In this document: one piece after another, positions 3,119-64,000 of the stretch
Position numbering within the stretch: the stretch's first letter is position 1
Layout: every line of letters begins with the position of its first letter
From: Candidatus Methylomirabilales bacterium
GTDB lineage: Bacteria > Methylomirabilota > Methylomirabilia > Methylomirabilales > CSP1-5
Assembly: GCA_046758505.1 (NCBI GenBank)
Contig: JBHIAH010000002.1
Span: 59,312 to 123,311, forward strand
Direction of reading: 5' to 3'
DNA: 64,000 nucleotides
The notes under the pieces: generated by a model
Seen by the model: only the letters and a program-made list of their open reading frames with translations
The model's database searches: none
What the model was told of the DNA's origin: nothing
Position numbers and translations under genes: made by a program

Positions 3119-5116
3119 TTAGAGAGAGTCCTCAGAGTCCCGTTCCTTGCGGATCCGGCGCCGTACGCCGAACACATGAGCCGGAACGTTCTGCGGATTG
3201 AGCTCGACGTAATTGCGCGGGCCGTGCCAGAGGTAGCGGGCGTCGTTGATCAGATCATGCACTTGGTAGGGATGTTCGTGATCGAGCCCCAGCGCGTCGA
3301 GGTCAACCTCTACCCAGCCCGTATGCGTCTGATGGGGGCTCAGATTGACCACGACCAGGATCATGTTCGCCCGATCTTCCGTACTCTTGCTGTAACAGAG
3401 AAGCTGGTCGTTGTCCACGGAATGAAAACGCAGACCGCCATTGCTGTGCAGTGCAGGGTTTTCCCGACGAATCCGGTTCACCCGGGCGATCAATTCGCGC
3501 AGGCTGTCCGGTCGGGAGATGTCCCAGTATTTGATTTCGTACTTTTCCGAGTTGAGATATTCTTCGCCCCCGGGCTCCCGGGGCCGGTTCTCGCAGAGTT
3601 CAAAGGCGGGACCGTAGATTCCGTAACTCGCCGCCAGGGTGGCCGCCAAGACCAGCCGCGTCATGAAGGCCGGCCGCCCTCCGGACTGCAGATACTCGGG
3701 CAAGATATCGGGTGTATTCGGCCACAGACTGGGCCGGAAATACTCTCGCACGTCTGTCTGGGTGAGCTCGGTGAAGTATTCGGAGAGTTCCCACTTGGTG
3801 TTGCGCCACGCGAAATACGTATACGACTGGGTGAAGCCAAGCTTGGCGAGTTCGTACATCACCTTCGGGCGGGTGAAAGCCTCGGCGAGAAAGATCACGT
3901 CGGGATGGTCCGCCTTGATCCCGTCGATCAGCCACTGCCAAAAGGCAAAGGGCTTGGTGTGGGGATTGTCCACCCGGAAGATCCGCACACCCTCGTCGAT
4001 CCAGAAGTAAAAGATGCTCCTGAGTTCCTCCCAAAATTCGCGCCACGCTTCGGTCTCAAATTCGAAGGGGTAGATGTCCTCGTACTTTTTGGGCGGGTTC
4101 TCCGCGTACTGGACGGTGCCATCGGGGCGCCACCGGAACCACTCCGGATGCTCCTTCACATAGGGATGATCGGGTGAACACTGGAAGGCGATGTCTAATG
4201 CGATCTCGAGACCGTAGTCGCGAGCCTTTGCAAGGAACCGTCGGAAATCCTCCCGAGTCCCGAGCTGGGGATGAATCGCCTTGTGCCCGCCCTCCTCGGC
4301 GCCGATGCCCCAGGGGCTCCCCGGATCATCGGGCTCGCAAATGGGAGAGTTATTCTTCCCCTTGCGGTGCGTGCGGCCGATGGGATGGATGGGGGGGAAA
4401 TAGAGCACGTCAAAGCCCATGTCTGCAATGTACGGCAACCGCTGCTCACAATCCCTGAAGGTCCCGTGGACGCCCGGCTTCGGACCACAAGAGCGGGGAA
4501 ACATTTCGTACCAGGCACTGAACCGGGCCCGTTCCCGATCAACGACCACGACGAGCTCCTTGCCGTATCTGGTGGCCAGCCGCCTGTCGGGGTACAGCGC
4601 CATCAACTGGGCCAGATCCTCAGCCAGCGCCAGGCGGATCTTCTCGGATGGGTTCGACGGGAAGTCCGAACGCAGGGCCGTGGCTCTCTCCTTCAGCTTT
4701 GTGGCATCCGCCCCGGAAGCCCGCCCACTCGCCTCCTCGACCAAGTCGGCCCCCACCAGGAGGTCGACCTCCACCTCCTGGCCCGCCTCGACCTTCCTTC
4801 CCAGGTCCCGCCGCCAGGTTCTGAACCGATCGACCCAGGCTTCAAGGGTATACCGGTACCGCCCGAGCTCCGTCACACGAAACTCTGCGCGCCATCGGTC
4901 GTTCACCACGAACTCAAGGGGGACCTCACTCCAATTCTTAGCTGTCTCCCGGCGGTAGCGGAGTACGCCCGAGAGCGCGTCGAGCCCTTCAGCGAAAATA
5001 TCCACCTCCACGACAACCTTTTCACCGACCGTCCGCTTGATGGGGAAACGCCCCCCATCAATCTCGGGCTTGACCCCCTCGATAATTACCCGTCCGGGCC
5101 ATTCGTCGACACGCAC
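3119..5116 (-). CDS. glgE: alpha-1,4-glucan:maltose-1-phosphate maltosyltransferase
   Basis: N-terminus RVIIEGVKPEIDGGRFPIKRTVGEKVVVEVDIFAEG is typical of the GlgE N-domain. GH13 catalytic blocks GFDVLYFPPIHPIG, RVDNPHTKP and FLAEAFTRP. Confidence 0.9.
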   Translation of the reverse strand: MRVDEWPGRVIIEGVKPEIDGGRFPIKRTVGEKVVVEVDIFAEGLDALSGVLRYRRETAKNWSEVPLEFVVNDRWRAEFRVTELGRYRYTLEAWVDRFRTWRRDLGRKVEAGQEVEVDLLVGADLVEEASGRASGADATKLKERATALRSDFPSNPSEKIRLALAEDLAQLMALYPDRRLATRYGKELVVVVDRERARFSAWYEMFPRSCGPKPGVHGTFRDCEQRLPYIADMGFDVLYFPPIHPIGRTHRKGKNNSPICEPDDPGSPWGIGAEEGGHKAIHPQLGTREDFRRFLAKARDYGLEIALDIAFQCSPDHPYVKEHPEWFRWRPDGTVQYAENPPKKYEDIYPFEFETEAWREFWEELRSIFYFWIDEGVRIFRVDNPHTKPFAFWQWLIDGIKADHPDVIFLAEAFTRPKVMYELAKLGFTQSYTYFAWRNTKWELSEYFTELTQTDVREYFRPSLWPNTPDILPEYLQSGGRPAFMTRLVLAATLAASYGIYGPAFELCENRPREPGGEEYLNSEKYEIKYWDISRPDSLRELIARVNRIRRENPALHSNGGLRFHSVDNDQLLCYSKSTEDRANMILVVVNLSPHQTHTGWVEVDLDALGLDHEHPYQVHDLINDARYLWHGPRNYVELNPQNVPAHVFGVRRRIRKERDSEDSL

Positions 5117-52896: not shown

Positions 52897-54737
52897 TCTA
52901 CGGCTGGAGCGGGACCATCCTCCGGGTCGATCTGACCCACGGCATCATCACGAAGGAACCCCTGAACCGGCAGTGGGCCCGCGATTACGTCGGCGGGCGG
53001 GGGCTGGGGGCCAAATACCTGTATGCGGAGATGGACCCGACCGTGGATCCCCTGGGCCCGGACAACACCCTGATCTTTGCCACCGGTCCCCTCACCGGGA
53101 CCAACGCCTCGTGCGGGGCCCGGTACATGGTGGTGACCAAGGGAGCCCTGACCAACACGATCACCACCTCCAATTCGGGTGGGCACTGGGGACCGGAGCT
53201 GAAGTTCGCCGGCTACGACATGGTCATCCTCGAGGGACGGGCCGCCCGACCCTCTTATCTGTGGATTTATGACGATCAGGTCGAGATCCGACCGGCGGAT
53301 CACCTGCAGGGGAAAACCGTCTGGGACACAGAGGATCTCATCCGGCAGGAGCTGGGGATTCCCGACGCCATCGTCGCCTGCATCGGTCCCGCGGGCGAGA
53401 AGCTGGTGAAGTTTGCCTGCATCATGAATGACAAGCACCGGGCCGCGGGCCGCTCCGGAGTCGGAGCGGTCATGGGGTCCAAGAACCTGAAGGCCATCGC
53501 CGTTCGCGGAACGAAGGGGGTTCGCATCGCCCACCCCGAGGCCTTCATGAAGGCCGTCTGGGCCGCGAAGGCCAAGCTTCGAGCCTCGCCGACGACAGGT
53601 CAGGGCCTCGCCACGTACGGGACCGCCGTCCTCGTCAACGTCATCAACGAGCACGGGGCCTTCCCTACCAACAACCATCAGCTCGCCCAACTGAAAGGGG
53701 CCGACAAGCTGAGCGGCGAGACCCTGACCGAAACCCGCCTCGTAGCCAACAAGGCGTGCTTCGCCTGTACCATCGCCTGCGGGCGGGTTTCCAAGCTTCC
53801 CGAAGACGCCGCGGGCAAACTCCCGGTGACGACCCATCCCCATAACTGGCGGATCGCAGCGGAGGGCCCGGAGTACGAAAACATCTGGGCTCTCGGGGCG
53901 GACTGCGGTGTCACCGATCTGGACGCCGTCATCAAGGCGAATTTCCTTTGCAACGAGCTGGGGATGGATCCGATTTCGATGGGGGCGACCCTGGCCGCCG
54001 CCATGGAACTGTACGAGAAGGGACATGTCAATCTGGGGCACACGGGGGTCCCGCTCACCTTTGGCAGCGGCGAGGCGTTGGTGGCCATGGTGGAGCAGAC
54101 TGCCTACCGGGAGGGTTTCGGCGGGGAGCTCGCCGAGGGATCCAAGCGGCTCGGCGCAAAGTTCGGCGCCCCCCAGTTTTTCATGGGGGTGAAGGGCCAG
54201 GAATTTCCCGCGTACGACAGTCGAGCGATCCAGGGGATGGGGCTCGGGTACGCCACGTCGAACCGGGGCGCCTGCCATTTGAAGGCGTACACCGTCGCTC
54301 CCGAGATCCTGGGCACGCCCAAAAAGATGGACCCGACGACGACCGAGGGGAAGGCGGGGATCACCAAGCTCATGCAGGACGTCACAGCGTCGGTCGACGC
54401 CACGGGATTGTGTCTGTTCCTGACCTTCGGGATCGGTCTCGAGGACATCCTGCCGCAACTCGCGGCGGGAACCGGCATCCCCTACACGATGGAGAGCATC
54501 CTCCAGGCGGGAGAGCGGATCTGGAACCTCGAGCGGATCTGGAACCAGAAGGCCGGCTTCAGCGGCACGGACGATACCCTGCCCACACGGATCCTCCAAG
54601 AGCCGATCCCCAGCGGGCCAAGCAAGGGGCGGGTAAACCGTCTGCACGAGATGCTTCCCGAGTACTACCAACTCCGGGGCTGGACCCCTGATGGCCAGCC
54701 CTCAGCTCAAAAATTGATCGAACTGGGCCTCCTGTAG
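52893..54737 (+). CDS. aor: tungsten-dependent aldehyde:ferredoxin oxidoreductase (AOR family catalytic subunit)
   Basis: GWSGTILRVDLTHGIITKEPL..., YVGGRGLGAKYLY, SNSGGHWG, and KNLKAIAVRG. Confidence 0.9.
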   Translation: MIYGWSGTILRVDLTHGIITKEPLNRQWARDYVGGRGLGAKYLYAEMDPTVDPLGPDNTLIFATGPLTGTNASCGARYMVVTKGALTNTITTSNSGGHWGPELKFAGYDMVILEGRAARPSYLWIYDDQVEIRPADHLQGKTVWDTEDLIRQELGIPDAIVACIGPAGEKLVKFACIMNDKHRAAGRSGVGAVMGSKNLKAIAVRGTKGVRIAHPEAFMKAVWAAKAKLRASPTTGQGLATYGTAVLVNVINEHGAFPTNNHQLAQLKGADKLSGETLTETRLVANKACFACTIACGRVSKLPEDAAGKLPVTTHPHNWRIAAEGPEYENIWALGADCGVTDLDAVIKANFLCNELGMDPISMGATLAAAMELYEKGHVNLGHTGVPLTFGSGEALVAMVEQTAYREGFGGELAEGSKRLGAKFGAPQFFMGVKGQEFPAYDSRAIQGMGLGYATSNRGACHLKAYTVAPEILGTPKKMDPTTTEGKAGITKLMQDVTASVDATGLCLFLTFGIGLEDILPQLAAGTGIPYTMESILQAGERIWNLERIWNQKAGFSGTDDTLPTRILQEPIPSGPSKGRVNRLHEMLPEYYQLRGWTPDGQPSAQKLIELGLL

Positions 54738-54833
54738 AACGTCCAACGTCCGAGGGCCGAAGTCCGACGCGGGGACAAACGATAGAATAACTTTGGACAT
54801 CGGACGTCGAACATCGCACTTCGGACTTCGCTG
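54738..54833. repeat. inverted heptamer arrays filling the aorB-aorC spacer
   Basis: Left 54738-54772: AACGTCC AACGTCC GAGGGCC GAAGTCC GACGCGG. Right 54792-54833: TTTGGAC ATCGGAC GTCGAAC ATCGCAC TTCGGAC TTCGCTG. The right units are the reverse complement of the GTCCGAN word; for example CGAAGTCCGA pairs perfectly with TCGGACTTCG. Confidence 0.85.
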
Positions 54834-54845
54834 AGCGGAGCGACC

Positions 54846-56234
54846 ATGCAGCACGTGATCATCGGGGGCGGGCCGACCGGGATGTACGCCCTCGATACGA
54901 TTCGAAAACTCGACCAGACGGCCGCCATCACCCTGATTTCGGATGAACCGGCGTACGCGCGCATGGCCCTCCCGTATTATCTGGCCCGAGAAATTCCCGA
55001 GGAGCAGCTCATGCTCGGGAACGACCGCTTCTTTCAGGAGATGCGGGTGGAGGCGCGCCTCGGCCGGCGGGTAACCCGCATCGATCCACAGCAAAGGGTG
55101 GTGACCCTGGACGACGCCAGTACGCTTGACTTCGACACCCTCCTGATCGCCACCGGTTCCTCCCCCACCCGGCCCGCCGTCCCGGGGGTCGATGGCCCCG
55201 GAATCAGCACCCTCTGGACCCTGCAAGAGTCCCGGGACGTCTTGACGCGCGCCCGGGAGGGGGCCAAGGTGGTCTTCATTGGGGCGGGGTTCATCGGTTT
55301 CATCGTGCTGAACGCCCTGCATAAGATCGGCTGCCAGCTCTCGGTGATCGAGATCAAAGATCAGATCCTTTCCCGCATGCTCGACCGAGGCTCGGCCGGC
55401 CTGGTAGAGCGGTGGTTGACCACCAAAGGCATCGCGGTCTATACCGGGGCCACCGTGACAGAGATTGGCGACCTTCGGGATGGTCGGAAGGCCATCCGCC
55501 TGAGCGACGGGCGCACCCTCAGCGCGGATCTAGTGATCGTGGCCACCGGGATTCGTCCCAATACCGACCTTGCCCAGGCCGCTGGGATTCAGGTGCATGA
55601 GGGAATCCTGGCCAACGACCGACTCCAGACGAACTTCCCCTTCATCTATGCGGGAGGAGATACGGCGCAGGGGCCCGACCTCTCGACCAGCGGCCAGGCC
55701 ATCCATGCCATCCAGCCCACCTGCGTGGACCACGGCCGGGTGGCAGGCGCCAATATGGCCGGCGCCACGGTCCACTACGCCGGAAGCCTCCTGGTGAACA
55801 TCCTCGATGTCGCGGGGCTGCACTGCAGCAGCTTTGGCCTCTGGCAGGATGAGGGACGCGAGGCCACGGTTCTTCAGAACCCAAACCGCTTCATCCTCCG
55901 AAAGCTCGTCTGGGAGGGGGACCGGATTGTCGGGGCACTCTTCCTCGGCCCGGCGGAGGACAGCGTGATGCTGAACGACCTGGGAATGGTGAAGGGCCTC
56001 ATCCAGACAAAGGTGAGCCTAGGACCATGGAAAGGGCATCTCATGAAATACCCCCTTGATATTCGACGCCCCTACGTCGCCAGTCGGGCGGCTGAAAGGC
56101 TTCTCCAGTCCACGACCGTGGGACGACCCTCCACGGATCTCAGGTTCCGGCACCTGGGGCACACACCCGAGACCCGACCCACGGCGGCCCATCACGTGAT
56201 GATCAGCACGCAACCAAACATGGACCAACCATAG
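54846..56234 (+). CDS. FAD/NAD(P)-binding pyridine nucleotide-disulfide oxidoreductase (AorC-like subunit)
   Basis: MQHVIIGGGPTGMYAL (first dinucleotide fold), VVFIGAGFIGFIVLNAL (second fold), and YAGGDTA. GGAG lies 5 nt before the ATG. Confidence 0.85.
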   Translation: MQHVIIGGGPTGMYALDTIRKLDQTAAITLISDEPAYARMALPYYLAREIPEEQLMLGNDRFFQEMRVEARLGRRVTRIDPQQRVVTLDDASTLDFDTLLIATGSSPTRPAVPGVDGPGISTLWTLQESRDVLTRAREGAKVVFIGAGFIGFIVLNALHKIGCQLSVIEIKDQILSRMLDRGSAGLVERWLTTKGIAVYTGATVTEIGDLRDGRKAIRLSDGRTLSADLVIVATGIRPNTDLAQAAGIQVHEGILANDRLQTNFPFIYAGGDTAQGPDLSTSGQAIHAIQPTCVDHGRVAGANMAGATVHYAGSLLVNILDVAGLHCSSFGLWQDEGREATVLQNPNRFILRKLVWEGDRIVGALFLGPAEDSVMLNDLGMVKGLIQTKVSLGPWKGHLMKYPLDIRRPYVASRAAERLLQSTTVGRPSTDLRFRHLGHTPETRPTAAHHVMISTQPNMDQP

Positions 56235-56268
56235 TCCGAAGTCCAATGTCCGACGTCCGAAGTCAACA
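56234..56268. repeat. heptamer array starting in the aorC stop codon
   Basis: GTCCGAA GTCCAAT GTCCGAC GTCCGAA GTCAACA. Confidence 0.8.
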
Positions 56269-56474
56269 AAGGCGAGGAAGGGGTTCCTTCCGAGGCAGAC
56301 ACCATCTGGCTTGCGTCGGCCGGGGTCCCGCAGCCGGAGCGAAGCGAAGGCTGGGGTGGCCCACACGAACGAATCAAAACGCCTCACCGCGCGTAAGGTT
56401 GCACCTGTGCATTAAGTCCATGGAGAATATGGTGCTGCCGAGGAAGGTCCTTCCAAGCCTTTAGTGAGACAAGC

Positions 56475-57050
56475 ATGAAGATAGAGATCAAGCTGTTCGC
56501 CAATCTGAAAAAGCTCCTCCCCCCCGACGCCGACGGCAACATGGCCACCCTGGAGGTCGAGGAGAGCCTGACGGTGGGAGCACTCCTCGAGCACCTCCAA
56601 GTCCCCACGGAGCTGGCGCAACTCGTCCTGGTCAACGGTGTCAATATCGAGGGGGAGTATGGGCGGGTCCTTCGAGAGGGCGACACGCTAAGCATCTTCC
56701 CCCCGGTCGCCGGCGGGATCGCCTATCCCTACTTCCCGGATCTCGACAACGCGCCGGAGAAGGAGATTACGCGCGGGGTGAAGATCCGGGTAGCCTGGGG
56801 GGACAAGCTCATGCTCTCCCGCGTCATCCTGGAGCCGGGCGCTACCGTCCCAATGCACAGCCATCCCCATGAGCAAGCGGGGATCGTTTTGGAAGGCGAG
56901 TTCGACTTTACGATCGGCACTGAAACCAGGCGAGTGAAGGCAGGAGATGTCTACTTTATTCCGGGGGGTGTGACGCACGGCTGTCTCGCCTGTACCGGAC
57001 GGGCCATCGCCCTCGACATCTTCACTCCCCCACGGGAGGAGTATAAATAG
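56475..57050 (+). CDS. MoaD/ThiS-like ubiquitin-fold domain fused to a cupin domain
   Basis: aa 1-81: MKIEIKLFANL...VLVNGVNIEGEYGRVLREGDTLSIFPPVAGG, a canonical MoaD ending. It continues without a stop into the cupin motifs PMHSHPHEQAGIVLEGEF and GDVYFIPGGVTHG. Confidence 0.8.
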   Translation: MKIEIKLFANLKKLLPPDADGNMATLEVEESLTVGALLEHLQVPTELAQLVLVNGVNIEGEYGRVLREGDTLSIFPPVAGGIAYPYFPDLDNAPEKEITRGVKIRVAWGDKLMLSRVILEPGATVPMHSHPHEQAGIVLEGEFDFTIGTETRRVKAGDVYFIPGGVTHGCLACTGRAIALDIFTPPREEYK

Positions 57051-57321
57051 GTAGGGCAGAGGGTCTCCCCTCGCCGGCACACCCGTGGGAGCGGTCACTT
57101 CGCTCGCCAATCTCTCCCTCCTCTGGCTCACCCCTTGCATTCATAACCCTGCGATCGCCGTACTCGTGAGCCGTGGCCCCGGTTGGCGGAGCATTGGGCG
57201 CTGACCACACGGGGTGGCGGGGCTCTTGCACCGCCGGGAAAAGGGATGTAGGTTCCCCAGACAAGGTCCAGGGGGGTGCCGGGCACCCCCTCAGAATGCC
57301 GGGTGAAGTGTGGGAGGACGG

Positions 57322-57930
57322 ATGCTCGACCTGAATGCGCTGATCAGCCATTGGGGATACCTAGCCATCTTTTTCGGAATCATCCTCGGCAACGTGGGAC
57401 TTCCCATTCCGGAAGAGACGGTCCTCGTTCTCGCTGGATTCCTCGCCTGGGGTGGTAGGTTCCGGCTGCCGCTGGTCCTCGCGATCGGCATCGTGGGCGC
57501 AGTGGCTGGCGACAATATGGGGTACTGGGCCGGCCGACGCTATGGGCTGGCGGTGCTCAAGCGGTACGGCAGCCGGCTCTACGTCACGGCGGACCGATTC
57601 GAGAGGATGCAGCGCATCGTCAAGCGATACGGCCCCTCCGGGGTGTTCGTCTCACGATTTCTCCCGGGGCTCCGCTTCATGGCCGGCCCGCTCGCCGGGA
57701 CCACCGGACTACCATTTTTCTCCTTCTTTGTCTCGAATGTCCTCGGCGCGATCGTGTACGCGCCGACGATGGTGGGGCTCGGCTATGCCATCGGTTACGG
57801 ACTTGGCCAGTACGTCGAGCGGTTTCAGCAGGTCGTGCGGCAGACCGAACACATCCTGCTGCTCGGCGTGATCGTCCTCACCGTGATGCTTCTCGGCTGG
57901 CGGGCCTTCCGTTCCCGCACACACGCCTGA
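57322..57930 (+). CDS. DedA family inner-membrane protein
   Basis: GYLAIFFGIILGNVGLPIPEETVLVLAGFLA, GDNMGYWAGRRYG, and VFVSRFLPGLRF. Confidence 0.85.
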   Translation: MLDLNALISHWGYLAIFFGIILGNVGLPIPEETVLVLAGFLAWGGRFRLPLVLAIGIVGAVAGDNMGYWAGRRYGLAVLKRYGSRLYVTADRFERMQRIVKRYGPSGVFVSRFLPGLRFMAGPLAGTTGLPFFSFFVSNVLGAIVYAPTMVGLGYAIGYGLGQYVERFQQVVRQTEHILLLGVIVLTVMLLGWRAFRSRTHA

Positions 57931-57937
57931 CTCGAAC

Positions 57938-58122
57938 CAGCTGCCAGTTGTCAGCCGTCCGCTGTCAGCAGAGGAGATGCTGGGAAGCGAGGATGCTAGA
58001 AAGCTTGGATGCTGGGAGGGAGTCTGTTGTCAGGCTCCCCCGTCCCCACACGCCCGGCCTACTAGCCTTCTAGCGTTCCAGCCTGCTAGCCGCCTATTGC
58101 TGACTGCTGACAGCCGACAGCT
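57938..58122. repeat. nested inverted repeat arrays between convergent dedA and the NxxGxxAF gene
   Basis: Outer arms: CAGCTGC CAGTTGT CAGCCGT CCGCTGT CAGCAG (57938-57971) versus TTGCTGACTGCTGACAGCCGACAGCT (58097-58122). CTGCTGACAGC is shared as a perfect complement, and 17 of 19 nt match when extended. Inner arms: GCTGGGAA GCGAGGAT GCTAGAAA GCTTGGAT GCTGGGAG (57979-58018) versus CTACTAGC CTTCTAGC GTTCCAGC CTGCTAGC (58059-58090). Confidence 0.85.
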
Positions 58123-59320
58123 ATCTCGCGGTGGGGACGGCAAGGAAGAGACCGGAGGCAGCCCGGCCACCCTCGACAGTACCCGCAAACGCCACGGTGC
58201 CGTCGGGGCCGACTTCCGGATCGATCACATTGGTAAAACGTCCCCCCAGCGGAGTCGGGTCCCCGACCCGGACGACCGGCATCAAGGTTGCTTTCGTGGC
58301 GAGGAAGATTCCGGCACTCGCCTCTCCCCGCGAAATTGTCGCTTCAAAGGCGACGGTACCGCTTTGATTGAACGAGTACGTCAGGCCGATAAAAGAGAGC
58401 TGCCCCCCGCCCGGCACGGGATCTCCCCGTGCCGCTATCTTTTTGATGGACCCGTCCGAGGCCAGGAAGAGGCCCGCGGGGGCTCGAGCCCCCTCGAGCG
58501 AGGCCCAAAAGACCACCTCCCCATGATCGTTCAGCATCGGGAGGGCCAGGTCCTTGAAGGTCCCCCCGAGGGGGGACGGATCTCCCACGGCAACCACTGT
58601 CTGCACACCTGACTTCGGACCCACAAAGATTCCCGAAGGGGCCCTGCCGCGATGCACTCTGCCTTCAAAGACCATCTCCCCCCGGTTGTTCATCGACAGG
58701 TCGACAAACTCACCGAATCGACCGCCGACCGACGTGGGATCACCAGCCCCCACCACCTTTTCAAGGACGCCCGCCGAGGCGAAGAAGAGAGCCCTGGGCA
58801 CCTTGCCGCGCTCCACGCGACCCACAAAGGCAATGGCATCGGCGCAATTGAGCACCACCTGGCCGAGCTCCCGGAGGACACCGCCACCCGGGGCAGCGTC
58901 ATTCACCGCCACCACCTTCTTCAGACTGTTTCCCCCCCTGAAGTAAATCGCCTGGGGAACCCCGCCCGCCGCCGAGCCGACGAAGGCCACATTCCCCCGC
59001 CGATTCAGGGCCGTGGAACTCAGATCGATAAACGTCCCCCCCAGGGGAGAGGAATCGCCTATGGCGACGACCCGAGTGAGGGAAACGCCTCGCGCCACGT
59101 AGACCCCATGAAACGGTTCATCCTTCTTTTTCACCAAGGCATCAAACAGAATCGCGCCGGTGTTCGCCACGGGGTCAAAATGCGTAAAGGTCCCTCCCTG
59201 AGGCGCCCCGTCCCCCGCGGCCACCACCTTCAGGATGGTAAACGCGGCGGGCTCGGCCGAGCCCACCCCGAACAGGAATAGTAGTAAGGCAGCGACAAAG
59301 GCTCTCCGTAGCACCCTCAC
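58121..59320 (-). CDS. secreted tandem-repeat protein (NxxGxxAF-type repeats, probable beta-propeller)
   Basis: Signal peptide MRVLRRAFVAALLLFLFGVGSA. About eight repeats of roughly 48 aa with the pattern VVA-GD--P-GG-F------N--G-VAF------G---G-F. Confidence 0.75.
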   Translation of the reverse strand: MRVLRRAFVAALLLFLFGVGSAEPAAFTILKVVAAGDGAPQGGTFTHFDPVANTGAILFDALVKKKDEPFHGVYVARGVSLTRVVAIGDSSPLGGTFIDLSSTALNRRGNVAFVGSAAGGVPQAIYFRGGNSLKKVVAVNDAAPGGGVLRELGQVVLNCADAIAFVGRVERGKVPRALFFASAGVLEKVVGAGDPTSVGGRFGEFVDLSMNNRGEMVFEGRVHRGRAPSGIFVGPKSGVQTVVAVGDPSPLGGTFKDLALPMLNDHGEVVFWASLEGARAPAGLFLASDGSIKKIAARGDPVPGGGQLSFIGLTYSFNQSGTVAFEATISRGEASAGIFLATKATLMPVVRVGDPTPLGGRFTNVIDPEVGPDGTVAFAGTVEGGRAASGLFLAVPTAR

Positions 59321-59377
59321 CAGACTCTCCTCCCTCTCATGCCCGACTAACCCTGGCCGATGACCGGAAACCGCCTC

Positions 59378-59636
59378 GGTTCATGGTTCATAGTTTATGG
59401 TTCATGACCAACAGTTCACGGTGGATGATTCATGGTTCATGGTGGTGCTCGGAGTATAAGTCTATGAACTCTGAACCTTCAATCCTGAACTCCCTACCAC
59501 CATTCACTAGTCACCAGCCACCACTCACCCGCCACGAGTCACCTGCCGACAGACGACTGGTGACCGCAGACCGACGACTGACTTTGGACGTTGGACTTTG
59601 GACCCTCACGGTGAACCGTGAACTATGAACCGTGAA
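59378..59636. repeat. 259-nt mosaic of 37 phase-locked heptanucleotides
   Basis: Stepping by 7 from 59378: GGTTCAT GGTTCAT AGTTTAT GGTTCAT GACCAAC AGTTCAC GGTGGAT GATTCAT GGTTCAT GGTGGTG ... CTATGAA CTCTGAA CCTTCAA TCCTGAA ... TCACCAG CCACCAC TCACCCG CCACGAG TCACCTG CCGACAG ACGACTG GTGACCG CAGACCG ACGACTG ACTTTGG ACGTTGG ACTTTGG ACCCTCA CGGTGAA CCGTGAA CTATGAA CCGTGAA. No register slip. Confidence 0.9.
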
Positions 59637-60657
59637 CAGGCCTTATGACGGCCGGCTTTCGATGCCGGGCCATTCGGATTGCCACCCGGAGCGCCTCCAG
59701 GAGGCTCTGCGGGCTGGCTGTCCCCTTTCCGGCAATGTCGAAGGCGGTCCCGTGATCCACCGAAGTCCGGATTATCGGCAGCCCCACAGTCACATTGACC
59801 GCCCGACCGAAACTCCGGAGTTTGACAGCGACATGCCCCTGATCGTGATACATCGCGACGACGAAATCGAACCCGCCTCGGGCCGCCCGGTAAAAGAGGG
59901 TATCGGCAGGAAAGGGCCCCGTGGCATCGATCCCCTCTCCTCGGGCCGCCGCCACCGCCGGAGCGATCTCTTCCCGCTCTTCGCCGCCAAAGAGCCCCTC
60001 TTCCCCTGCGTGGGGATTCAGGCCGGCCACGGCGATCCGTGGCCTGGGAAGATCCCATGCCGCTCCGACCTCGTGCGCCAAGCGGACGACCTGCAACACG
60101 CGCTCTTTCTTGACCCGATCACACGCCTCGCGAAGGGGGACATGCGTGGAGACATGGAGCACCCGGAGCCTTCCTGCGACCAACATGAGCGCGTAGTTTC
60201 GGACGCCAGTCCGTTCGGCAAAGATCTCGGTATGCCCCCCGAACGGATAGCCGGCGAGATGCATCGCCTCTTTGTTGAGCGGGGCCGTGACCACCGCATC
60301 GAGCTCACCGGCCCGGGCGAGCTCGATCGCCTTCCAGACGTACTCAACGGCCGCCCGCCCGGCTTGGGCCGAGAGAACGCCCGGGGGACACTGCTCCACT
60401 TCGACATTCTTGAGGTCGAGGACTGCCACCTCTCCCGCGTGGCCGGTTACCTCCCCAACCGAACCGATCCGCCGAACGCCGACAGAGACCCCCACATAGC
60501 CCTGCGCCCGGTCCAAGACGGCGCCGTCCCCCACGACGATCGGGATCGCCTGGCGGGAGATCGCCCCGTGAGCGAGGGCCTTGATGATGATCTCCGGCCC
60601 GATCCCAGCCGGATCGCCCATGGTAATGCCGATGCGTAGCTTCCTTTTCTCCGCCAC
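59623..60657 (-). CDS. pdxA: PdxA family 4-hydroxythreonine-4-phosphate dehydrogenase
   Basis: LRIGITMGDPAGIGPEIIIKA, and SVDHGTAFDIAGKG. GTG at 60657 has GGAGG 5 nt upstream. The listed ATG at 60717 lies inside the heptamer repeat. Confidence 0.85.
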   Translation of the reverse strand: MAEKRKLRIGITMGDPAGIGPEIIIKALAHGAISRQAIPIVVGDGAVLDRAQGYVGVSVGVRRIGSVGEVTGHAGEVAVLDLKNVEVEQCPPGVLSAQAGRAAVEYVWKAIELARAGELDAVVTAPLNKEAMHLAGYPFGGHTEIFAERTGVRNYALMLVAGRLRVLHVSTHVPLREACDRVKKERVLQVVRLAHEVGAAWDLPRPRIAVAGLNPHAGEEGLFGGEEREEIAPAVAAARGEGIDATGPFPADTLFYRAARGGFDFVVAMYHDQGHVAVKLRSFGRAVNVTVGLPIIRTSVDHGTAFDIAGKGTASPQSLLEALRVAIRMARHRKPAVIRPVHGS

Positions 60658-60710
60658 TCGCACCTCCCCGCCGCCGGATTTTAGCACACTCTCTCGTCGG
60701 TGCCAAAGTC

Positions 60711-60836
60711 GGTTCACGGTTCACAGTTCACGGTTGAGGGTCCAACGCCCGAAACTACGGCTTTTGGCCCGGTTCATGGTTCATAGTTCATGGTTCAGTG
60801 GAAACAGAAATTCGCAATCCCCAATTCGAAATTCGA
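60711..60836. repeat. heptamer arrays in the pdxA / sucC-like divergent spacer
   Basis: GGTTCAC GGTTCAC AGTTCAC GGTTGAG GGTCCAA (60711-60745). GGTTCAT GGTTCAT AGTTCAT GGTTCAG (60771-60798, register shifted by 4). AATTCGC AATCCCC AATTCGA AATTCGA (60809-60836). Confidence 0.85.
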
Positions 60837-60916
60837 TATACCCAACCCACGGTCGTCGGTCAACCCTGGGGGGCTTGCTCCTTGAACCGGGCGGGGAAAG
60901 GGTATAAGGTGAATTC

Positions 60917-62125
60917 ATGCGACTCCTCGAACACGAAGCCAAGCGGCTCCTCGCCGCCTGTCAGGTCCCGGTGCCCGCCGGCCTGCTGATCTCATCGGAA
61001 CCCGAACTCACGAGGGCGTGCGGCGCCATCAGGTCTCCTCGCATGCTGAAGGCTCAGATCCCCACGGGGGGACGGGGGAAGGCCGGAGGCGTCGTGAAGG
61101 TCGGCACGTCTGATGAGGGCCTCAGAACAGGCAGGGGCCTCCTCGGCCGATCTCTGCTCGGCCACCCGGTTACCGCGCTACTCCTCGAGGAGCCGGCAGA
61201 GGTCGAGGAGGAACTGTACGCGGCCGTCACGTATGATCCGGTGGCCAGGCGCCCGGTCATGATCCTCAGCCGATCCGGGGGAATCGATGTGGAGGTAAGG
61301 GCCGCCCGATCCCCCGGCGCGGTGCAGACAATGCCCTTCGATCCTTTGGAGGGGTTCCACCCGTTTCGCGCCCGGGAGATCGTCCACCGGCTGGGATTCT
61401 CTGGCACTGAACTGCTCCAGCTTTCTGACCTTCTCTGCCGGCTCGTCGACTGCTTCCGGCGCTTCGAAGCTACGCTCGTCGAGGTGAATCCCCTGGCAAA
61501 AACGCCCCGAGGAGCGTTCGTCGCCCTCGACGCCCGCATCGAACTGGACGAGGATGCCCTGTGCCGGCACCCCGAGCTCGCGGCGCGCCATGACATCCAG
61601 CCGCGGGAATCGGGCGTTCGCCCCGTAACCCCCTTCGAGCAGCAGGCGCGGACCATCGACGCCATGGACCACCGGGGGGTGGCGGGACGGGTGATCGAGT
61701 TTGCGGGAGACCTCGGCCTGCTCATCGGTGGCGGAGGGGCGTCCCTGACCGCCTTTGACGCGATCCTGCGGCACGGGGGGTATCCGGCCAACTACTGCGA
61801 GATCGGCGGCAATCCTTCGGTCAAGAAGCTTCAGGCGTTGACCGCGCTCATCCTCTCCAGACCCCGGGTGAAGAAGCTGGCCGTGATCATGAACGTGGTC
61901 TCCAATACCCGGGCGGACCTAGTGGCTCGGGGGGTGATCAAGGGAGTGCTGGAGCGGGGAATGAAGCCACACGAGACCATCGTCTGCTTCCGGGTCCCCG
62001 GGTCGTGGGAAGATGAAGCGCTGAAGATTTTACGGCGGTATGGGGTAACCCCCTGCGACCGGTCCGTCTCGATTGACGAGGCCGCCCGTCTCGCGGTGCG
62101 CCGGGCACACGGTGAGGCCGCGTGA
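60917..62125 (+). CDS. succinyl-CoA synthetase / ATP-citrate-lyase-like acyl-CoA synthetase, ATP-grasp (beta-type) subunit, divergent
   Basis: MRLLEHEAKRLL..., and GGRGKAGGVVKV. LLIGGGGASLTAFDAILRHGGYPANYCEIGGNP resembles the ACL/CCS type more than the canonical SucC NGAGLAM. Confidence 0.75.
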   Translation: MRLLEHEAKRLLAACQVPVPAGLLISSEPELTRACGAIRSPRMLKAQIPTGGRGKAGGVVKVGTSDEGLRTGRGLLGRSLLGHPVTALLLEEPAEVEEELYAAVTYDPVARRPVMILSRSGGIDVEVRAARSPGAVQTMPFDPLEGFHPFRAREIVHRLGFSGTELLQLSDLLCRLVDCFRRFEATLVEVNPLAKTPRGAFVALDARIELDEDALCRHPELAARHDIQPRESGVRPVTPFEQQARTIDAMDHRGVAGRVIEFAGDLGLLIGGGGASLTAFDAILRHGGYPANYCEIGGNPSVKKLQALTALILSRPRVKKLAVIMNVVSNTRADLVARGVIKGVLERGMKPHETIVCFRVPGSWEDEALKILRRYGVTPCDRSVSIDEAARLAVRRAHGEAA

Positions 62126-62126
62126 G

Positions 62127-62243
62127 ATGACGATGCACCGGGAAATATATCAGTGTGATCTCTGCGGAGCCACGATGCAGGATATTCACTGTAAGCTCGT
62201 CTGCCCTGACTGTGGCTATACGCGCGACTGCTCGGACCCCTAG
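62127..62243 (+). CDS. unlisted 38-aa Cys-rich zinc-ribbon-like protein
   Basis: MTMHREIYQCDLCGATMQDIHCKLVCPDCGYTRDCSDP. Its ATG is 1 nt after the upstream TGA, and its TAG is 3 nt before the downstream ATG. Six Cys including two CxxC pairs. Too short for the supplied ORF track. Confidence 0.55.
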   Translation: MTMHREIYQCDLCGATMQDIHCKLVCPDCGYTRDCSDP

Positions 62244-62246
62244 ACG

Positions 62247-63185
62247 ATGGCGATTCTGGTCGACGAAAAAACACGGATCCTGATTCAGGGGATTACCGGC
62301 CGAGAAGGGGCGGCCATGGCGAAGGACTCCGTGGAGTATGGGGCACAGATCGTGGCGGGCGTCACGCCGGGAAAGGGGGGCCGCCAGATTCACGGGGTGT
62401 CGGTCTATGATTGCGTCAGCCACGCCGTGAAGGAACACGGCATGGACGCGGCGGTGATCGCGGTCCCCCCGCCCTTTGCCAGGGACGCCGCCCTCGAAGC
62501 CCTCTCGTGCGGCATCGGCCTCGTGGTGATCCTCACCGAGCGCATCCCCCGCAAAGATACGGTAGAGATCGTCAGCTTCGCCGCGCAGCAGGGGGCCCAC
62601 GTCATCGGTCCGAACTCGTTAGGAATAATCTCCCCTGGGAAGACGAAAGTCGGTATGATCGGGGGGCCCGCGCAGGACGTGCGGAAGGCCTATCAGCCCG
62701 GCGCGGTCGGCATCATCTCGCGCAGCGGCGGGATGACCACGGAGATCGCCACGCTCCTTACCCTGAACGGCATCGGACAGTCTACCTGTGTGAGCATCGG
62801 GGGGGATCCGATCGTCGGGACCCATTACCTCGACTTGATCCCCCTCTTCGCCCGGGACCCGGCAACGGCAGTAGTGGTGCTCTTCTGCGAGCCTGGTGGC
62901 GGGGCCGAAGAGGCCCTGGCCGACCGGGTCGCCCGAGAGGGGCTCCCCGTGCCGATCGTGGCATTCGTGGCTGGACGGTTTGCCGACCGGATGCCGGGAA
63001 CGCGTTTCGGGCATGCCGCCGTCATGGTGGAGGGGAAGCGCGGGAGTACCCAGGGAAAGATCGAGGCGTTCCGCCGCGCCGGCCTTCCTGTGGCCGAAGA
63101 GCTCACCGGCATAGTCCCTTTGGTCCGGGAGGCCCTCGGACGGGAGAAAAACAGTTCAGGGTTCAGAGTTCATGGTTCAGGGTAA
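62247..63185 (+). CDS. succinyl-CoA synthetase alpha-type (CoA-binding, phosphohistidine) subunit
   Basis: MAILVDEKTRILIQGITGREG, GVTPGKGG, GPNSLGIISPG, SRSGGMTTE and QSTCVSIGGDPI, with the phosphohistidine loop GTRFGHAAVM. The last 11 codons (SSGFRVHGSG) are encoded by the heptamer repeat. Confidence 0.85.
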   Translation: MAILVDEKTRILIQGITGREGAAMAKDSVEYGAQIVAGVTPGKGGRQIHGVSVYDCVSHAVKEHGMDAAVIAVPPPFARDAALEALSCGIGLVVILTERIPRKDTVEIVSFAAQQGAHVIGPNSLGIISPGKTKVGMIGGPAQDVRKAYQPGAVGIISRSGGMTTEIATLLTLNGIGQSTCVSIGGDPIVGTHYLDLIPLFARDPATAVVVLFCEPGGGAEEALADRVAREGLPVPIVAFVAGRFADRMPGTRFGHAAVMVEGKRGSTQGKIEAFRRAGLPVAEELTGIVPLVREALGREKNSSGFRVHGSG

Positions 63186-63187
63186 GG
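63153..63187. repeat. heptamer array overlapping the sucD-like 3' end
   Basis: AGTTCAG GGTTCAG AGTTCAT GGTTCAG GGTAAGG. The TAA stop (63183-63185) lies in the last unit. Confidence 0.85.
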
Positions 63188-63204
63188 GGCACAGAGAAAA
63201 ACAA

Positions 63205-63474
63205 ATGACGGCCGGGGCGGAAATACTGAAAGGCATCTTTATCAGGGTGGCGGTGAACGACCCGGCGTGTCTCGGGATAGAGCAGTGCGGGGACTGTGTG
63301 GGCCTCTGCCCGGTCGATATTTTTTATCCCGTCGGGGACCGGGTCAGCGTGCAGGAGGAAGACGAGTGCACGCTGTGTACCCTGTGCCTCACATGCCCCA
63401 CCGATGCCATCCGGATTGTGAAGCTGTATGAGGATGGGGAGTCCGATGTCCAAAGTCCAACGTCCAAAGTCTAG
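63205..63474 (+). CDS. 2x[4Fe-4S]-type ferredoxin-like protein
   Basis: CLGIEQCGDCVGLCP and CTLCTLCLTCP. The start is uncertain: ATG at 63205, or ATG at 63172 overlapping the upstream gene. The C-terminal DVQSPTSKV is encoded by GTCCAAA-type heptamers. Confidence 0.65.
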   Translation: MTAGAEILKGIFIRVAVNDPACLGIEQCGDCVGLCPVDIFYPVGDRVSVQEEDECTLCTLCLTCPTDAIRIVKLYEDGESDVQSPTSKV

Positions 63475-63714
63475 GACCCTTGGGCGGGGGGCTGGCGGGG
63501 GGCTGGCGGTTGGCGGCTGGTGGCACGGAGTTCAGGGTTGAGGGTTCAGAGTTCATGAGGAGTGGATGGTGGTTGGTAAGGGTCGTGGGTGTTGGGTGTT
63601 AGGTTTGAGTCATGCGCGATCATTACTGAGTGCTGAGGGGCGATTTGGCATTGCTGACCGCTCACTGCTGACGGCCGACCGCTGATTCCATCGGTCGCCG
63701 GTCGTCGGTCACCG
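63441..63714. repeat. 274-nt mosaic of heptamer arrays plus an 11-mer duplication
   Basis: GTCCGAT GTCCAAA GTCCAAC GTCCAAA GTCTAGG. GGGGGGCTGGC x2 (63486-63507). AGTTCAG GGTTGAG GGTTCAG AGTTCAT. GTGGATG GTGGTTG GTAAGGG TCGTGGG TGTTGGG TGTTAGG. TACTGAG TGCTGAG GGGCGAT TTGGCAT TGCTGAC CGCTCAC TGCTGAC GGCCGAC CGCTGAT TCCATCG GTCGCCG GTCGTCG GTCACCG. Confidence 0.88.
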
Positions 63715-63716
63715 AC

Positions 63717-64000
63717 ATGCGAGGAGGCATGGCAGGGACTATCTCCCAAGGACTGGCCAGATTTATCACCGATATCACGATCGACAGGCTGCCGGCCGAG
63801 GTGATCGAGATGACCAAGCTCTGCCTCCTCGACTGGCTGGGCTCCGCCATCGCGGGGGGGATCACTCGGCCCGTCCAGATGTTTCTCCGGGTGGCCACGG
63901 ATCTCGGCGGAAGACCTCAGGCGACCCTGATCCCCGATGGTTCCAAGACCTCGTGCCACCTCGCCGCGCTCGTCAACGCCGCCTCTTCCCACGTCGTGGA
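63717..64000 (+). CDS. MmgE/PrpD family protein (2-methylcitrate dehydratase-like), 3' end outside window
   Basis: An open frame not in the ORF track, because it has no stop in the window: MRGGMAGTISQGLARFITDITIDRLPAEVIEMTKLCLLDWLGSAIAGGITRPVQMFL...ATLIPDGSKTSCHLAALVNAASSHVV. This is a typical MmgE/PrpD N-terminus. The start may be the ATG at 63729. Confidence 0.7.
   Translation, partial: MRGGMAGTISQGLARFITDITIDRLPAEVIEMTKLCLLDWLGSAIAGGITRPVQMFLRVATDLGGRPQATLIPDGSKTSCHLAALVNAASSHVV

Follow-up and report, generated by a model that had tools for sequence, protein, structure and literature searches.

Tandem heptanucleotides are found in the non-coding spacers of heterocystous cyanobacteria (Calothrix, Anabaena, Nostoc), where the short tandemly repeated repetitive (STRR) sequences conform to the consensus words CCCCAGT, TTGGTCA and CAACAGT. 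Two other systems bear on repeats of this kind: the enterobacterial repetitive extragenic palindromic (REP) sequences and bacterial interspersed mosaic elements (BIME), made up of imperfectly palindromic units of ~35 nt and linked to RAYT transposases, and the heptads of word WATCACW recognized by the omega/ParB protein. The subject of this report is a spacer of 259 nt, positions 59378-59636 of a window of 64,000 nt (the whole stretch of DNA analyzed; contig JBHIAH010000002.1, positions 59,312 to 123,311 of the forward strand) taken from a 123-kb contig of a Candidatus Methylomirabilales bacterium metagenome-assembled genome (MAG), NC10 phylum. The spacer separates the stop codon of pdxA from the start of a gene encoding a DUF7453 protein, both genes lying on the - strand. 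It is a dense, nested-inverted mosaic of heptanucleotides, the NC10 example of a known, still unexplained class and not a new kind of element. In our view the spacer is probably a compound microsatellite of heptanucleotides, similar in type to STRR and to long simple sequence repeats (LSSR), generated by unit-wise slippage together with local copying and operating at the level of DNA.

As cited in two later papers, LSSRs have units of 5-11 nt, 7 being the commonest length, and are intergenic and phylogenetically scattered; heptanucleotide LSSRs are over-represented, and polymerase slippage has been proposed as their source (Mrazek 2007, via PMC4679880, PMC4692102). G. metallireducens hosts classes of repeats made of three to five tandem 7-, 8- or 9-nt units, mostly arranged as opposite-strand pairs, which were interpreted, without testing, as binding sites of an unidentified global regulator or of IHF/HU (PMC2700814). 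Mixed heptamer assemblages reside in Microcystis, Gramella and Elizabethkingia, and TAACTGA repeats in marine Beggiatoaceae (PMC4679880). The GGGAATC repeats of Xanthomonas form inverted pairs flanked by the same genes, their length and sequence being variable (PMC4692102). A reader moving in 7-bp steps is established for plasmid pSM19035, whose omega/ParB recognizes contiguous heptads, direct or inverted, at least four of which, without gaps, are required for full activity (PMC9499535). In the literature we found no paper on such repeats in NC10, nor one with literal GGTTCAN arrays in a bacterial context.

Identity at lag 7 within 59378-59636 is 0.563, against 0.248±0.027 in 2000 shuffles (maximum 0.34), and is 0.52 at lag 14 and 0.50 at lag 21. 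Tandem Repeats Finder (TRF) delimits period-7 arrays at 59378-59443, 59497-59547, 59580-59603 and 59611-59637. The sequence-only reading that first drew attention to the spacer had divided it into 37 heptads of several word families; length, count and word list were all confirmed by reading. An independent assembly of SRR29324603 (Logan) is identical over the spacer, and the repeat is therefore real, not a one-off assembly error.

On the + strand the mosaic starts with a left terminal arm (59378..59405), GGTTCAT GGTTCAT AGTTTAT GGTTCAT, a four-unit module of 'GG-A-G' type which recurs, over its 28 nt, at 60770-60797 with 96% identity. Degenerate units follow at 59406..59447, read as heptads (GACCAAC AGTTCAC GGTGGAT GATTCAT GGTTCAT GGTGGTG), and then a non-repeat, AT-rich core, CTCGGAGTATAAGT, at 59448..59461. 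A block complementary to GGTTCAN (CTATGAA CTCTGAA CCTTCAA TCCTGAA) spans 59462..59489. The -10-like TATACT of the core (59458..59453, - strand) and the -35-like TTGAAG of a variant heptad in this block (59482..59477, - strand) make up a putative sigma-70-like promoter, TTGAAG-18-TATACT (- strand, 59482..59453), recognized by consensus match only. The CACCAS block (59490..59545, + strand; CCACCAT TCACTAG TCACCAG CCACCAC TCACCCG CCACGAG TCACCTG) is partly complementary to 59420-59446; TRF assigns to it higher-order periods of 14 and 21 nt as well, the 14-nt period with 82% matches vs. 63% for period 7. The GAC-core block at 59546..59580 (+; CCGACAG ACGACTG GTGACCG CAGACCG ACGACTG) is the complement of the CGGTCGT family, also found at 60848-60861, at 63692-63714 and in an NC10 relative (locus L009, see below). 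It is followed by ACTTTGG ACGTTGG ACTTTGG AC at 59581..59603 (+; TRF and heptad reading), and by the right terminal arm at 59604..59637 (+), ending in CGGTGAA CCGTGAA CTATGAA CCGTGAA C and overlapping the 3' end of pdxA. Left and right arms form an inverted repeat, and share one four-unit module in which the third unit starts with A.

The sequence-only reading held that one unbroken register is kept across unrelated words, and that this argues for a generator or a reader with a 7-nt step. Any string of 259 nt can be divided into 37 heptads, so that the claim needs a test, and the register was tested in four ways, by block rotation, long-lag identity, junction offsets and spacing of blocks of the same family. 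Blocks re-phased at random offsets give equal or higher column information in 39% of the trials (p=0.39). Over lags 35-210, multiples of 7 reach an identity of 0.261, and lags 1 mod 7 one of 0.262. Where word families meet (six junctions), in-register alignment yields 13/42 matches, vs. 16-17/42 at offsets -3 and -1. The xxxTGAA blocks, the sole testable pair of the same family in the spacer, are 147 nt apart and in phase, an outcome with a chance of 1 in 7, and 60 nt (4 mod 7) separate the GGTTCAC at 60711 from the GGTTCAT at 60771 in the neighbouring spacer. Periodicity thus holds within blocks only, and a phase lock across words is not demonstrable. Without support for a common register, the argument drawn from it for a special 7-nt-step generator or reader falls.

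The STRR class, proposed from the start as the analogue, is of the right kind: in both cases 7-nt units are tandemly arranged in non-coding spacers, with several word families per genome, and GTTCA-type heptads occur also at cyanobacterial loci among the matches listed in the genome scan described below. The differences are the NC10 host, the words (GGTTCAN, GACTTYG, CGGTCGT, CTGGTGA and GCTGACA) and the organization in short blocks of 3-4 good units, densely concatenated and often forming inverted pairs. The view that the mosaic could not be assigned to any described class does not stand, since heptanucleotide arrays, mixed-word assemblages and opposite-strand pairs have already been described outside heterocystous cyanobacteria. 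Head-to-tail units in excess of chance (lag-7 identity 0.56 vs. 0.25±0.03) and a non-coding location are shared with LSSRs, which are single long tracts, whereas many short tracts of different words are concatenated here. The Geobacter repeats are similar in having 3-5 units per site, opposite-strand pairs at variable distance, an intergenic location, and heptads and octads in one genome; in addition, the MTYCTGA consensus resembles the complement of GGTTCAG. They differ in that BLAST revealed them as separate multicopy families and not as one uninterrupted mosaic, and the words of the spacer do not belong to the GTTGCTYN, TCTCCGTS, MTYCTGA or GGACCGG families, from whose published consensus, the only term compared, they differ at 1-2 positions at best. 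As in Xanthomonas and Beggiatoaceae, intergenic heptamers lie between the same genes in relatives and vary in length and sequence, but TAACTGA repeats are oriented relative to start codons and GGGAATC repeats can form G-quadruplexes, and neither feature is found here (the words are not G-rich). With REP/BIME sequences the spacer shares an intergenic mosaic of short, hairpin-capable modules in alternating orientation, made up of tandem heptads in place of imperfect palindromes of ~35 nt.

Period-7 arrays are confined to the last 9.3 kb of the window, where six more reside with 59349-59647 (54734-54856, 56209-56272, 58099-58122, 60697-60868, 63139-63214, 63415-63722), and heptad and octad blocks fill most spacers of its final 9 kb. 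All the arrays of the window lie between genes or within the final 4-12 codons of a gene; they extend into the 3' ends of three genes, pdxA, a ccsA-like gene and a ferredoxin-like open reading frame (ORF). No lag-7 signal was found in 20 spacers examined within 1-54 kb. Window positions with lag-7 identity of at least 0.55 are 470, vs. 0-25 for other lags, with the exception of lag 8 (104) and lag 14 (129). Period-7 arrays number 12.5 per 100 kb in the window and 1.2 per 100 kb in a control set of 493 kb of metagenome loci selected by PdxA (at most 61% identical, among the matches listed), an excess of about 10-fold. A lack of period-7 excess, which the sequence-only reading had named as refuting, is thus not what was observed. 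Leaving aside multiples of three, 7 is the most frequent period in these control loci. Arrays of at least three near-identical units are 25 in 152 kb of NC10 loci, and 7 in the 493 kb of controls.

Four of the window arrays are worth describing as companions of 59378-59636. The spacer at 54738..54845 contains inverted GTCCRA / ACTTYGG heptad arrays. A spacer between convergent genes, 57946..58122, has outer CTGTCAG / CTGACAG heptads (57946-57970 / 58098-58122), which enclose an inverted pair of octad arrays (57976-58017 and 58057-58091), and folds with z=-5.3 and -3.0. Heptad families AGTCCAA, GGTTCAG, TGGGTGT, GCTGACS and CGGTCGY, together with an 11-nt repeat at 63483-63509, are found at 63415..63722. 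A GGTTCAC array at 60711..60735 (+; GTGAACC on the pdxA strand) abuts the -35 hexamer of the predicted pdxA promoter TTGGCA-17-TAAAAT (60706..60678).

Short composite pieces of the spacer recur at other sites. The 55 nt at 59378-59432 are 87% identical to positions 8229-8283 of L009, located upstream of prpD (BLAST). Two more pieces recur in inverted orientation within the window: the 39 nt at 59464-59502 match 63518-63556 with 90% identity, and the 24 nt at 59580-59603 match 63448-63471 with 100%. The same hairpin, (GGTTCAN)4 - loop - (NTGAACC)4, is found in other NC10 MAGs.

The locus was compared in NC10 relatives, L006-L009 and L215 (PdxA 77-81% identical), L213 (PdxA 82%) and L214. In L006-L009 and L215 the same word families occupy the same spacers, with units differing in number and order. 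The families of the relatives are GGTTCAN, GACTTYG, GAAATTC, CGGTCRT, GCTGWCA and GTGRCTR, and are distributed around prpD, pdxA, the DUF7453 gene and a cupin gene. The orthologous pdxA-DUF7453 spacer of L009 measures ~105 nt and carries GGTTCAG, GAAATTC and CGGTCGT blocks. A GTGAACN array of 3-7 units abuts the pdxA -35 in the window, L006, L009 and L215, within a conserved promoter region consisting of a -35-like TTTGG, an extended -10 TGTGCTAnnAT and a Shine-Dalgarno GGGAGGT. The array is 79% identical across the four genomes, vs. 36% for the DNA between -35 and -10, the figure of 79% being inflated by the self-similarity of the repeat. L213 keeps the pdxA promoter without the array, and no arrays were found in 11 kb of L214; arrays are thus long-lived but dispensable. 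L212 is heptad-poor as well. In L006 they cluster around prpD and pdxA, and none is found in the next 10 kb.

Two peculiarities of L009 relate to the repeats. At L009:9882-10049 the gene caller stretched both pdxA and the DUF7453 gene through the heptad array, leaving an apparent spacer of 13 nt, and at L009:11221-11512 a run of N lies within another array, with duplicated repeat sequence on both sides. The repeats gave rise to both the short spacer and the N run, which are artefacts of annotation and assembly.

A change in unit number was directly observed in one of these mosaics. The 11-nt repeat GGCGGGGGGCT at 63483-63509 has one more unit in L002/L003 (about 3640-3680), contigs from two other samples, and the extra unit is the only difference over ~4.2 kb between near-identical strains. 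This indel is direct evidence of whole-unit change inside such a mosaic.

Arrays of four GTTCA units at 7-nt spacing were searched for in 596 Gb of genome sequences. The pattern has 20 fixed bases, and ~1 match is expected; it was found in at least 120 genome stretches, and viral contigs gave at least 120 matches to it. The figures that follow, up to the end of the paragraph's count of words, are among the matches listed. The phyla represented are Acidobacteriota, Planctomycetota, Verrucomicrobiota, Bacteroidota, Cyanobacteria, Desulfobacterota, Gemmatimonadota and NC10. Arrays of 4 units are 89, of 5 units 41, of 6 units 9 and of 7 units 14, with up to 17 units, the counts falling off roughly geometrically. 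An inverted partner is found within 300 nt for 55 of 172 arrays (32%), at a median gap of 28 nt, and the loci also carry nested inverted blocks like those of 59378-59636. Spacer types host arrays in proportion to their number (co-directional 96/282, divergent 28/93, convergent 31/88), and unpaired arrays are without strand preference, 24 being sense and 28 antisense (p=0.68). Distinct heptad words are 149 outside NC10 and 23 within NC10.

GTTCA as a privileged word was rejected. Scrambled cores at period 7 are abundant in viral contigs too (GCATT at least 120 matches, GTCTA 51), and the GTTCA core is common at period 8 (81 matches; 16 at period 5), the 7-to-8 ratio being at least 1.5.

The independence of word and strand, the confinement to non-coding DNA, the whole-unit change and the higher-order periods fit slippage as the mutational origin, with blocks copied and inverted locally in addition. 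Under the microsatellite reading favoured here, each block of 3-7 units would be an independent short array, arising and being renewed by replication slippage in whole-unit steps; two-unit steps would give the 14-nt higher-order periods. Blocks and composite pieces would be copied between neighbouring spacers, and also into inverted orientation, leading to nested inverted repeats. A period indivisible by three can be tolerated only in non-coding DNA or in the last few codons of genes, and arrays would hence accumulate in spacers. The process would act on DNA irrespective of the word, and local effects, such as a longer spacer, hairpin or cruciform potential and promoter-like hexamers, would be by-products, at most secondarily exploited.

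Several observations weigh against such an origin. The NC10 blocks have only 3-4 near-identical units, and slippage should be slow at this size. Short arrays persist at the same position, the GTGAACN array at the pdxA -35 being the clearest case. Multi-unit modules with the same internal variants are found at non-orthologous sites, for which slippage alone is insufficient, and the inverted partners of 32% of the GTTCA arrays listed call for selection or a further process. At 59378-59636 no variant in the number of 7-nt units was observed, the one other assembly that covers the spacer being identical. Nor does slippage account for the clustering in the last 9 kb of the window; as the generator it is inferred, and so is the reason for a unit of 7.

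Inverted pairs, recurrent four-unit modules, persistence near promoters and clustering, all unexplained by slippage, keep a protein-binding reading alive. By analogy with omega/ParB, arrays could be cis-elements in duplex DNA read by a protein stepping 7 bp (8 bp for octads), and the four-unit modules would be operators or nucleoid-organizing sites beside promoters; we regard this as rather unlikely. The likeness to omega/ParB sites, contiguous 7-bp units in both orientations beside promoters, is an analogy of mechanism only, as the plasmid system has one word and a cognate ribbon-helix-helix (RHH) gene, while four-unit GGTTCAN modules are embedded here among at least six unrelated words. This diversity, with the 23 words of the NC10 sample and the 149 found elsewhere, is too large for one reader. 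What recommends a reader is that the array at the pdxA -35 shows, in four genomes, a conservation similar to that of the -10 and of the Shine-Dalgarno, a figure which self-similarity inflates; that 'GG-A-G' four-unit modules recur in the window and in other NC10 MAGs; and that both orientations occur without strand bias, as expected of duplex binding. The paired tandem 7-9-nt repeats of Geobacter were also annotated as putative regulator sites (PMC2700814). On the other hand, the arrays are dispensable, as seen in L213 and L214, and convergent spacers hold them as often as promoter-bearing ones; no cognate binding protein has been identified, none having been searched for. An even bolder version, to which we give a small chance, is that modules of about four 7- or 8-bp units may be widespread, unrecognized cis-elements in duplex DNA, 59378-59636 being a stack for several readers.

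The inverted repeats of the spacer are extensive. The terminal one pairs 59379-59404 with 59612-59637 (26 nt, 88% complementary); nested within are the pairs 59378-59393 / 59462-59477 (16 nt, 88%) and 59420-59446 / 59496-59522. Hence the pairing suggested at the outset between the GGTTCAT block and its complement exists, the terminal arms being the stronger pair. When both arms are included (59321-59660), the + strand folds at -117 kcal/mol, with z=-4.9 relative to shuffles, and the gene-sense - strand has z=-2.5. It is conceivable that the spacer acts as RNA, forming a REP/BIME-like hairpin or multibranch structure in a pdxA-DUF7453 transcript which would stabilize the upstream mRNA, cause pausing or termination, or be cut by RNase III to uncouple the two genes. 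Inverted arrays found also in the sister spacers 54738-54845 and 57931-58120, and in about a third of the GTTCA arrays listed across phyla, go in the same direction. However, the better-folding + strand is antisense to both genes, and all three arm mismatches are G-U on the + strand and A-C on the transcribed - strand. Removal of the last 15 nt of the right arm lowers z to -1.25 and -0.37. Inverted arrays reside in three of five large heptad spacers and are missing in two; spacers 60658-60916 and 63475-63728 lack inverted repeats and fold no better than shuffles, and among the heptad spacers folded only 57931-58120 and 59378-59636 are clearly better than shuffles. The spacer has no U-tract terminator, and no Rfam covariance match was found in 54000-64000 at E≤1. 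Given that the better-folding strand is antisense and that arrays show neither an orientation bias nor a preference for 3'-end spacers, a role as RNA is the weaker of the two rivals, and we hold it to be improbable.

Two specific functions were rejected along the way: a role as terminator, in view of the missing U-tract, of the lack of preference for convergent or 3'-end spacers and of most heptad spacers folding like shuffles, and a strand-specific RNA role, given the lack of orientation bias in unpaired arrays.

The terminal inverted repeat also raises the question of whether the 259 nt are a non-autonomous mobile element, a miniature inverted-repeat transposable element or foldback element with 26-nt termini, a very unlikely origin in our judgement. 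The 88% match of the termini, the L009 annotation placing pdxA and the DUF7453 gene 13 nt apart, and the recurrence of 24-55-nt sub-modules elsewhere in the window and in L009 would agree with it. The true L009 spacer is ~105 nt of heptads, the 13 nt being the result of gene-caller over-extension, and repeats were therefore already at the site. Moreover, the flanks CGCCTC / AGGCCT show no target-site duplication, BLAST retrieved sub-modules of at most 55 nt and no second full-length copy (the complete genome was not covered), and the interior itself consists of arrays.

An 81-aa ORF, 59383..59628, runs through the spacer, antisense to both neighbouring genes. The sequence-only reading had dismissed it as an artefact of the repeat, and its composition bears this out: GC content at the three codon positions is 0.49/0.51/0.54, third-position GC of the selected ORFs of the window being 0.69-0.87, and the translation has no Pfam match at E≤1. 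That the ORF encodes a real repeat protein, or else that the region is an assembly artefact, is scarcely credible. The ORF is ATG-initiated and spans the region, short-read assemblies can collapse repeats, and an N gap interrupts a heptad array in L009; but period 7 reads through all three frames, the second assembly is identical and free of N, and the blocks, which are imperfect, do not exceed 28 nt, a length below that of assembler k-mers.

Of the genes flanking the spacer, the upstream one, pdxA (59623..60657, -), encodes a protein of 344 aa (PF04166, E=4.5e-108), 100% identical to a database protein labelled 'Candidatus Methylomirabilales bacterium'. The downstream one (58121..59320, -) encodes a DUF7453 secreted protein (PF24251, E=1.5e-39), is syntenic with L009, and has an N-terminus, VRVLRRAFVAALLLFLFGVGSAEPA, which resembles a signal peptide; an exact look-up of the protein sequence gave no record. 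The gene is preceded by a non-repeat leader of 57 nt (59321..59377, -) with a Shine-Dalgarno GGAGGAG before the GTG at 59320. The right arm of the spacer covers the pdxA stop codon (59623-59625) and the final four codons. Tails encoded by heptad arrays are featured by pdxA (..VHGS*, 59623-59637), by the ccsA-like CoA-ligase subunit gene (..FRVHGSG*, 63150-63185) and by the ferredoxin-like ORF (..SDVQSPTSKV*, 63440-63474), and thus the place where a real gene stops can be set by repeats. Between pdxA and prpD, at 60917-63185, lie genes for citryl-CoA-synthetase-like subunits (ATP-grasp_2 + Citrate_bind; CoA_binding + Ligase_CoA), which are missing at that position in L006, L009 and L214.

Two other regions of the window were noted. 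A non-coding element of ~197 nt (56268-56463, +), located just upstream of a ThiS/MoaD-cupin gene, is 82% identical to L006:9676-9872, neutral spacers of the same two genomes being ~36% identical, and is flanked by heptad arrays in both genomes. From the two sequences RNAalifold predicts 61 pairs with a long closing stem, and 6 double changes are compensatory; Rfam gave no match to the element at E≤10. We take it as a candidate for a structured RNA that has escaped annotation (riboswitch, leader or small RNA), the evidence from two sequences being weak. At the other end of the window, octad arrays (8/16-nt period) at 618-656 are inverted relative to 732-765, the pair adjoining a tRNA-Asp(GTC) gene (773-850, -). 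A 31-nt copy, 90% identical, of the 5' end of this tRNA (its high-coordinate end, + strand) lies 85 nt away, at 908-938, and could be what remains of a duplicated tRNA or of an integration site.

Heptad arrays have practical consequences for the genomes which host them. Gene callers run ORFs through the arrays, as exemplified by the 81-aa ORF and by the over-long pdxA and DUF7453 calls of L009, and assemblies are broken at them. Heptanucleotides have been known to be over-represented in the spacers of bacteria since 1990 and 2007, mechanism and function having never been shown, and the phenomenon is extended here to NC10/Methylomirabilales, for which no prior description was found. Across phyla the arrays are, among the matches listed, independent of word and strand, about one third being inverted pairs; in NC10 they persist in the same spacers over ~20% protein divergence, yet are absent in some sister lineages. 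Should the bolder version of the protein-binding reading be true, four-unit modules would be kept beside promoters, as GTGAACN is at the pdxA -35 in four NC10 lineages, and shared across many phyla, and their readers would step 7-8 bp along the helix, like the ribbon-helix-helix proteins omega or MetJ.

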